DNA of 7,614 bases from a virus (IMGVR_UViG_2585427735_000018:1-7614), one strand, 5' to 3'; positions 4,308-4,763 are shown, counted from the first letter of the stretch. The notes: a model not told the origin generated them from the letters alone. Program-made: numbers and translations.

Positions 4308-4471
4308 GAACGAGTATCGAGATGGCACATAGCCTCGCTCAAATTGGAGTCAGGTTTGTGCCAATACCAGTAGAAACAGACGAAGAATTTCATACGTTAG
4401 CCGCATCCCTTTCACAAAAGCTGGAAATGATGGTGGCGAAAGCAGAAGCAGATGAGAGAGACCAGGTATGA
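4280..4471 (+). CDS. Lambda orf63-like small protein
   Basis: 63 aa, [63 protein letters not shown]; same position and size as lambda orf63. Confidence 0.8.
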   Translation: MHKASPVELRTSIEMAHSLAQIGVRFVPIPVETDEEFHTLAASLSQKLEMMVAKAEADERDQV

Positions 4472-4763
4472 CAACCACGGAATGCATTTTTCTGGCAGCG
4501 GGCTTCATATTCTGTGTGCTTATGCTTGCCGACATGGGACTTGTTCAATGACACCTCAGCAGGAAAACGCCCTTCGCAGCATTGCCCGTCAGGCTAATTC
4601 TGAAATCAAAAAAGCCAGACAGCAGTTTCCGGATAAAAACGTCGATGACATTTGCCGTAGCGTACTGAAGAAGCACCGCGAAACGGTAACGCTGATGGGA
4701 TTCACACCGACTCATTTAAGCCTGGCGATCGGCATGTTAAACGGCGTCTTTAAGGAACGGTGA
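4452..4763 (+). CDS. Hypothetical protein at the lambda orf61 position (start ambiguous: 4452 gives 103 aa, 4548 gives 71 aa)
   Basis: The open frame overlaps the orf63 end by 20 nt, as I recall for lambda orf61. The C-terminal 71 aa (MTPQQENALRSIARQANSEIKKARQQFPDKNVDDICRSVLKK...) look protein-like; the N-terminal 32 aa do not. Confidence 0.55.
   Translation: MRETRYDNHGMHFSGSGLHILCAYACRHGTCSMTPQQENALRSIARQANSEIKKARQQFPDKNVDDICRSVLKKHRETVTLMGFTPTHLSLAIGMLNGVFKER

Follow-up and report, generated by a model that had tools for sequence, protein, structure and literature searches.

The DNA analysed here, a stretch of 7,614 nucleotides (nt) from a virus (IMGVR_UViG_2585427735_000018:1-7614; called the window below), is the early leftward (pL) operon of a lambda-type phage, read on the + strand. 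At positions 4468-4551 it contains a 27-codon open reading frame (ORF), MTTTECIFLAAGFIFCVLMLADMGLVQ, which is probably a genuine gene of this operon, encoding a very hydrophobic 27-residue peptide with a single predicted helix and forming the middle of a translationally coupled chain. A first-pass annotation had described the frame as a real hydrophobic micro-ORF linked by ATGA overlaps to orf63 and to an orf61-like gene, and this description is supported by the pattern of selection and by the conservation of the overlaps. The elements concerned are:

4280-4471, + strand: orf63 (DUF1382), the gene upstream of the micro-ORF, with its TGA stop at 4469-4471; found in the ORF list and annotated in lambda and relatives
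4468-4551, + strand: the micro-ORF, 27 codons and stop; in lambda NC_001416, complement(30925..31008)
4548-4763, + strand: orf61-like gene, 71 amino acids (aa), product predicted to be three-helix
4468-4471, + strand: first ATGA, micro-ORF start and orf63 stop; kept in 168 of 168 relatives and, with another upstream gene, in the mosaic locus L308
4548-4551, + strand: second ATGA, micro-ORF stop and orf61-like start; ATGA in 161 and GTGA in 7 of 168 relatives
4454-4461, + strand: purine-rich GAGAGAGA, a moderate Shine-Dalgarno (SD)-like element 6 nt 5' of the micro-ORF ATG
4483-4530, + strand: hydrophobic core CIFLAAGFIFCVLMLA, codons 6-21; 16-residue Kyte-Doolittle mean 2.81, summed Hessa scale -3.4

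The ORF list confirmed that the ATG at 4468 opens a frame of 27 codons. The overlap of the orf63 stop with the ATG of 4468-4470 was correct to the base as first described, and the micro-ORF stop (TGA, 4549-4551) overlaps the ATG of the 71-aa ORF (4548-4550) in the same way.

Related loci were collected from IMG/VR, metagenomes and genomes. Positions 4280-4860 of the window were covered by 308 of them, representing 152 distinct haplotypes. Unique substitutions between 4471 and 4547 were scored in each frame, for which a synonymous fraction of 0.27-0.28 is expected, and the two neighbouring genes served as controls. Integrity was counted in 168 related sequences. The numbers of synonymous and nonsynonymous substitutions (S:N) were:

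Micro-ORF frame (4468): all 13:16 (P=0.028); in at least two haplotypes 10:5 (P=0.0015); in at least three 9:2 (P=2.3e-4)
4452/4482 frame: all 8:21; at least two 4:11; at least three 2:9
Third sense frame: all 7:22; at least two 1:14; at least three 1:10
orf61-like gene (control): all 22:23; at least two 16:13; at least three 14:6
orf63 (control): all 18:32; at least two 13:20; at least three 11:12

Among the sense frames the synonymous excess was confined to the one starting at 4468, which is therefore under frame-specific purifying selection. Nine of the 11 common variants (those present in at least three haplotypes) lie in the third codon position of the micro-ORF, and the only common replacements in its frame, F8L and A10V, are conservative. 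Common changes in the 4452/4482 frame include H9N, F13S, G17R, H19Y and T30A, some of them radical. A smaller first data set gave the same picture. The 27 codons were intact in 167 of the 168 relatives, the exception having 26 codons and a TAATG overlap with the next start. The most divergent copy (91% identity) has kept the ORF with five synonymous changes plus A21S and D22G; it has lost the ATG corresponding to 4452, and its orf61-like start is a GTG which still overlaps the micro-ORF stop.

The encoded peptide was the most hydrophobic of the 55 ATG-initiated ORFs of 20-60 aa found in the six frames of the window. Its 16-residue hydropathy was matched by only 7 of 12,144 ORFs (0.06%) in shuffled sequence, and the feature thus exceeds chance. 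A stretch of 19 residues gives about +0.3, because of D22, compared with a Kyte-Doolittle mean of 2.81 and a Hessa sum of -3.4 for the 16-residue core.

Of the competing starts, the micro-ORF ATG has the best SD-like element: the best duplex of GAGAGAGA with the 3' end of 16S ribosomal RNA was calculated at -5.3 kcal/mol with a spacing of 6. No SD-like element was present at usable spacing before the ATGs at 4452 and 4482, and the one of the orf61-like ATG is weak (GGGA, 4536-4539, -3.9 kcal/mol). A codon-usage model trained on the genes of the window gave a log-likelihood of +7.0 bits for the micro-ORF frame and -1.5 and -5.0 bits for the other frames.

The 77 nt that separate orf63 from the orf61-like gene could also be regarded as an untranslated spacer, with recent common ancestry as the only reason for the ORF and its conservation. 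In favour of this, no copy is less than 91% identical and RefSeq leaves the stretch empty. However, the three-base periodicity of the substitutions, the codon-usage preference, the extreme hydrophobicity of the reading and the exact overlaps at both ends would be unexpected of neutral spacer. Nor does an RNA function account for the stretch: the RNA of 4440-4600 folds less stably than its shuffles (z=+1.8), which does not support a structured RNA, and the region had no match in Rfam. A non-coding spacer is therefore considered very improbable. Two special roles for a translated micro-ORF were rejected. A leader peptide or attenuator does not fit a fold weaker than shuffles and the lack of a terminator before the next start, which the micro-ORF overlaps. 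A programmed frameshift joining the micro-ORF to orf61 would need a slippery heptamer, none of which was found near 4530-4551, and the frame relation between the two varies among clades.

The micro-ORF occupies the same nucleotides as the N-terminal part of the long forms of Orf61:

4452-4547, + strand: rejected N-terminal extension of orf61 (103-aa form from ATG 4452, 93-aa form from ATG 4482, same frame)

The 103-aa frame from ATG 4452 does exist in the window; it differs from the micro-ORF frame and continues into the 71-aa ORF. The first-pass annotation had concluded that one of the two interpretations must be wrong, and the evidence favours the micro-ORF. If a long reading were right, the stretch would encode the first 22-32 residues of a 93- or 103-aa Orf61 and the micro-ORF would be a chance frame. 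In favour of this, the 93-aa frame from ATG 4482 was open in 168 of 168 relatives, the 93-aa form is annotated in 933W (from the ATG equivalent to 4482) and likewise in other Shiga-toxin (Stx) phages, and it is the basis of PHROG 303; in the lambda reference, 'orf61' begins at the 4452-equivalent ATG and has 61 aa. On the other hand, the comparison of the two frames across relatives that had been proposed as a check went against the 4452 frame, whose ATG was present and followed by an open frame in only 53 of 168 sequences. The majority haplotype has a T at 4479 where the window has G, which makes a TGA of codon 10 of the 4452 frame in most relatives. The common substitutions in the 4452/4482 frame are neutral or radical, and neither start has an SD-like element.

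Distant relatives of the orf61-like gene also argue against the extension. Homologues with 30-47% identity were found by tblastn in Klebsiella, Yersinia, Vibrio, Erwinia and Enterobacter phages. At six distant loci the protein has 66-74 aa, and its beginning, M-(T/S)-P-..-E-N-A-L, corresponds in position to Met-4548. The gene upstream mostly overlaps this start by ATGA, and one locus has an in-frame stop five codons upstream. Because the distant homologues begin at this methionine, the 22-32-residue extension is not part of the family. RefSeq (WP_000188870.1) has the 71-aa form, which is also the one called in RefSeq E. coli genomes and in the Center for Phage Technology annotation of phage 434, both of which leave the preceding 77 nt empty. 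Since the 71-aa protein matches only positions 23-93 of the 101-position PHROG 303 profile, this profile carries a spurious N-terminal extension. In published models of the long Phi24B Orf61 (AlphaFold2, RoseTTAFold), residues 1-23 were placed inconsistently between the predictors (PMC8614690). The long orf61 readings across the micro-ORF are thus annotation artefacts as judged from the sequence, their being correct is very unlikely, and the 'orf61' of lambda (61 aa) and of 933W (93 aa) contains a stretch that is probably never made.

The lambda reading has an additional defect. At 4608-4613 the window has A6, as have 149 of 168 relatives (two have A5), whereas laboratory lambda (NC_001416, around 30865) and its derivatives have A7. 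The 71-aa gene of lambda is therefore frameshifted and its 'orf61' is a chimeric truncated reading, in which 32 residues come from the 4452 frame, the next 22 from the true protein and the last seven from the shifted frame. A 2021 review had noted that lambda Orf61 'appears truncated' (PMC8614690). An AlphaFold2 single-sequence model of the intact 71-aa protein has helices at 3-26, 32-49 and 54-65, with a predicted local distance difference test score (pLDDT) of 78, and had no significant structural match in the PDB. The RefSeq name of this protein, 'cell division protein ZapA', was not upheld: the score against PF05164 was 16.1 bits, with a cut-off of 23.8 (E=0.014), and NCBIfam gave no match.

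A further frame lies on the opposite strand:

4350-4535, - strand: antisense ORF, 61 aa, intact in 164 of 168 relatives; its wobble positions coincide with those of the micro-ORF

Because the wobble positions are shared, this ORF could in principle own the coding signal, and its intactness speaks for this. Where it lies under orf63, which is the larger part, it showed 6 S:17 N (P=0.86), and on the sites shared with the micro-ORF the sense frame did better (7:2, compared with 5:4). Moreover, the mosaic locus L308 splits the antisense ORF in two, a simple consensus scan detected no minus-strand promoter-like site directed into it, and its transcription would run counter to that of the pL operon. 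Antisense ORFs that are long and share wobble positions are a known by-product of real genes. The ORF was judged to be such a shadow, and the chance that the signal belongs to it is minimal.

Recombinant loci provided information on the limits of the micro-ORF. In E. coli L9 and similar genomes the homology to the window starts exactly at 4468. In the mosaic L308 an N6-adenine methyltransferase gene replaces orf63, its stop overlaps the micro-ORF ATG (GCATGA), and a strong GGGAGG stands at the SD position. Joints of lambdoid mosaics are usually at gene boundaries; position 4468 thus behaves as a gene start, and the micro-ORF travels with the orf61-like gene. The ATG overlapped by methyltransferase genes ending in ...REAA* is that of the micro-ORF in E. 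coli L9 and that of the orf61-like gene (MTPEE) in Klebsiella phages. The micro-ORF opens with ATGACAACCACGGAA (MTTTE, 4468-4482) and the orf61-like gene with ATGACACCTCAGCAGGAA (MTPQQE, 4548-4565). Speculatively, an insertion or a duplication at the beginning of orf61 may have given rise to the micro-ORF.

Five clades were scanned with single proteins. In relatives of Yersinia phage vB_YenM_06.16-1 the orf61-like gene has a GTG start three bases after the stop of the upstream ORF, and at 24 of 37 such loci this ORF was found by inspection to encode a hydrophobic peptide of 29-36 aa. A stricter automatic count gave 15 of 36, compared with 0.25 expected from the ORF density elsewhere in the same loci. 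The peptides fall into at least three unrelated families, MKRKISDGAWFWIYLIGYTVAATLYIVSNAG, MDALSFVMAYLDWILLIVGGGVAFWLLWVKEW and MNQPKVTEILIGICFALFIICLVVYVVGDAMNGVSM; the MKRKISDGAWFWIYLIGYTVAATLYIVSNAG and MDALSFVMAYLDWILLIVGGGVAFWLLWVKEW families stayed open through 36 and 81 unique nucleotide variants, respectively, with an excess in the third position. None is detectably similar to the lambda peptide, and BLASTP with the 36-aa peptide gave no alignment. We read these loci as suggesting a variable slot before orf61-like genes which repeatedly hosts tiny membrane-type peptides. An initial impression that the 36-aa loci share 'TE...D.M.G' motifs and an ATGA overlap with the lambda locus was wrong, as the junction there reads ATGTAA and GTA stands where the start was expected. 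In L214 and L217, the two loci with the 36-aa peptide MNQPKVTEILIGICFALFIICLVVYVVGDAMNGVSM, the GTG with which the orf61-like reading of relatives begins is changed to GTA (around position 801). This base change also gives the peptide its TAA stop, and the downstream gene may be without a start there.

It was also considered that the 27 codons might be translated just so that ribosomes leaving orf63 reach the orf61-like start, with a peptide that has no function of its own and is degraded. In favour of this, conservation of the double ATGA/GTGA overlap is complete, the orf61-like start, which in some relatives is a GTG, has a weak SD, and in other clades the upstream gene overlaps this start directly, to the same effect. 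Such a relay requires an open frame only, whereas the common substitutions were nine synonymous to two conservative; this selection at the peptide level argues against a pure relay. The hydrophobicity of the peptide is improbably high as well, and the unrelated peptides that fill this slot in Yersinia-type loci share both the hydrophobicity and the amino-acid conservation. A relay without a functional peptide is therefore unlikely, though less so than the other alternatives.

Several observations weigh against a genuine peptide gene. Given the high identity of the copies the selection test rests on 29 variant sites. The haplotypes are not independent, and if every singleton is counted the synonymous excess becomes modest (13:16, P=0.028). 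A fainter form of it is seen in the antisense ORF, with 5 S:4 N (P=0.037) among the common variants under the micro-ORF. The peptide had no match in Pfam, NCBIfam, PHROGs, PADLOC or PDB sequences. It is net acidic without Lys or Arg, and its uninterrupted hydrophobic run is only 16 residues long, where a bilayer-spanning segment would have about 18-20, usually with charges at its flanks; with such a core and no basic residue membrane spanning is not assured, and insertion of the predicted helix is plausible, not secure. No micro-ORF was found in Klebsiella-type (72), RothC-type (80) and Erwinia-type (39) loci, 191 in all, and in one lambdoid variant (L033) orf63 and the micro-ORF are jointly replaced by a gene of 250 aa. 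The micro-ORF is therefore dispensable for orf61 expression in general. Finally, ribosome profiling of lambda (Liu et al. 2013), as far as its results are related in a review, added ORFs of 7 and 31 aa in this region and none of 27 aa (PMC8614690), probably because the annotated lambda orf61 covers the latter.

In spite of these points a genuine gene for the hydrophobic peptide remains the best explanation. Ribosomes ending orf63 at the UGA of 4469-4471 would start at the overlapping AUG of 4468, and those ending the micro-ORF at the UGA of 4549-4551 would start the 71-aa gene at its overlapping AUG (GUG in some relatives). The micro-ORF would thereby have a dual role: it would encode a peptide under sequence selection and deliver ribosomes to a weakly signalled downstream start. 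Translation, coupling and location of the peptide, most likely in or on the inner membrane, are what we infer from these sequence features. The neighbours belong to the early, non-essential genes which modulate host physiology and the decision between lysis and lysogeny (PMC8614690, PMC3824215, PMC9239242), and by analogy with these exo-xis neighbours it may be guessed that the peptide acts in host take-over or modulates lysis-lysogeny.

A more specific and tentative idea, which we hold to be possible but doubtful, is that the peptide is one half of a two-part early-gene module. Its partner might be the orf61-like protein: the micro-ORF stays with the orf61-like gene when orf63 is swapped (L308), and unrelated hydrophobic micro-ORFs have been recruited before orf61-like genes in another phage clade. 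Alternatively, it might be a ligand of Orf63. A nuclear magnetic resonance study of the Orf63 dimer described a hydrophobic cleft, without a known natural partner, in which a single helix of designed sequence is bound with micromolar affinity (PMC10869804). On this version each Orf63 would be accompanied by one peptide, produced in cis from the overlapping start. Co-occurrence did not support an obligate pair of Orf63 (DUF1382) and peptide, as distant DUF1382 genes are not followed by a micro-ORF and Yersinia-type loci have no DUF1382 nearby, so this version stays of low probability. If the module existed, the lysis-lysogeny phenotypes of 'orf61' would be partly or wholly due to the peptide, especially in laboratory lambda with its frameshifted 71-aa gene.

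The published mutants are relevant in this respect. According to the primer arms given in PMC4699033, the lambda Δorf61 mutant lacks the equivalent of 4506-4588 of the window, that is, the last 15 codons of the micro-ORF and the first 13 of the 71-aa gene, and the Phi24B Δorf61 deletion begins after codon 24 of the micro-ORF. Because these mutations also destroy the micro-ORF, the pro-lytic phenotypes ascribed to Orf61 are not assignable to one product, and in laboratory lambda the peptide is a serious candidate for the Orf61 phenotypes. The present reading corrects the gene map of exo-xis, a region under active study, for which structural models and PHROG 303 include a spurious stretch. It would mean that a gene for a small hydrophobic protein was overlooked in one of the best-studied genomes, where it confounds published genetics, and it offers a cheap and specific test bed for relay-gene coupling and for phage micro-membrane proteins.

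The stretch around the micro-ORF is widespread. Over positions 4250-4800 the sequence is the same as in Escherichia phages ev243 and PhiR68_2 (100% identity) and differs little from that of lambda (98%). The stretch was found in 3,215 of 5,426 complete E. coli genomes, with roughly 4,400 E. coli copies in all, in lambda and in Shiga-toxin phages. Without the micro-ORF, its 77 nt would be the sole non-coding gap in the otherwise overlapping exo-orf60a-orf63-orf61 block. The first-pass annotation had called it unannotated. This holds for the lambda reference, the phage records and RefSeq, from which it is missing; it does not hold for some GenBank E. coli records and UniRef (A0A0A2SGE8), in which the exact 27-aa peptide is a 'hypothetical protein'. 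The exact peptide occurs on at least 981 contigs, and its string is absent from papers in the searchable literature. A tblastn search with the peptide in 50,697 phage records returned the lambda/Stx lineage only, all matches being at least 92% identical, and no distant homologue. The genome contig scan yielded mostly laboratory lambda DNA contaminating unrelated assemblies: contigs with the A7 allele (L011-L024 and others) were seen in assemblies labelled Shewanella, Bradyrhizobium, Pseudomonas, Kitasatospora, Paenibacillus and others, and they are almost certainly spike-in or cloning contamination.

The remaining genes of the block and its surroundings are:

3448-4128, + strand: exo
4119-4307, + strand: orf60a
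4760/4766-4855, + strand: ORF of 29/31 aa with terminator-like hairpin
4862-5083, + strand: orf73/TraR

The 29/31-aa ORF, MKSKIIRELQAPFLLFAFILKRINQQFRD, overlaps the orf61-like stop, contains a terminator-like hairpin (4784-4802) followed by a T-run, and is annotated in some phage records. Probably it corresponds to the 31-aa 'orf2313' reported from ribosome profiling of lambda. Its substitutions (8 S:14 N overall, 3:6 among common variants) gave no coding signal. Another terminator-like hairpin, of nine pairs followed by TCTGTTATCC, lies at 4189-4211 on the + strand inside orf60a. The minus strand has an ORF of 200 aa at 5294-5896, which contains several hydrophobic stretches and had no PADLOC match; it lies between orf73 and xis, the place of ea22 and ea8.5 in lambda. 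The integrase gene (6543-7614) is split into ORFs of 112 and 230 aa with the break near 6861-6881. The frame shift is due to a one-base insertion in ...AAAGCAATTAAGGAGG..., so that one frame reads SKIKAIKEGSA* and another RRGLPDAPLEDITTKEIAAMLNGY, which points to a defective int, unless the insertion is a sequencing error.

The peptide was compared with several known systems. Type I toxin peptides such as TisB (29 aa), DinQ (27 aa), Ibs (19 aa) and Hok (about 50 aa) resemble it in length and extreme hydrophobicity, and they too are commonly associated with prophages. Unlike them, the lambda peptide is net acidic rather than basic and is encoded in a polycistronic operon, linked to its neighbours and not tightly repressed. 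A simple and weak consensus scan found no minus-strand promoter-like site near 4400-4700, Rfam gave no match for an antisense RNA, and membership in a type I toxin family was rejected since no match in Pfam, NCBIfam, PHROG or PADLOC rose above noise. The annotated Orf61 (61 aa in lambda, 93 aa in 933W; PHROG 303 and 26061) uses the same nucleotides in another reading frame, and its N-terminal parts are neither conserved nor selected. The small lambda ORFs credited to ribosome profiling lie, as far as that study is reported, in the same operon and are of the same overlooked class, but the 29/31-aa ORF, probably the 31-aa one among them, showed 3 S:6 N, whereas the micro-ORF shows a coding substitution pattern.

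Coupling through overlapping stop and start codons (ATGA or TGATG) is known from E. coli trpE-trpD and trpB-trpA. The present locus is similar in having the 4-nt ATGA at both ends, a weak downstream SD and an overlap that is kept even with GTG. As in coupled pairs, the downstream gene has no strong ribosome binding site of its own, the orf61-like start being preceded by GGGA only and being GTG in 7 of 168 relatives and in the whole Yersinia-type clade. It differs in that a whole 27-codon gene would be the link between two putatively coupled genes.

Single-pass membrane proteins of less than 50 aa include KdpF (29 aa), MgtS (31 aa), CydX (37 aa) and AcrZ (49 aa) of E. coli. In comparison with these the predicted lambda peptide has a core of only 16 residues and lacks a sequence relation, basic flanks or a known partner. 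It is like them in size, in its one predicted hydrophobic helix, in its place in an operon, in having been missed by annotation and in its conservation at the amino-acid level, and its start is as expected of such genes, the ATG at 4468 overlapping the orf63 stop with GAGAGAGA at a spacing of 6.

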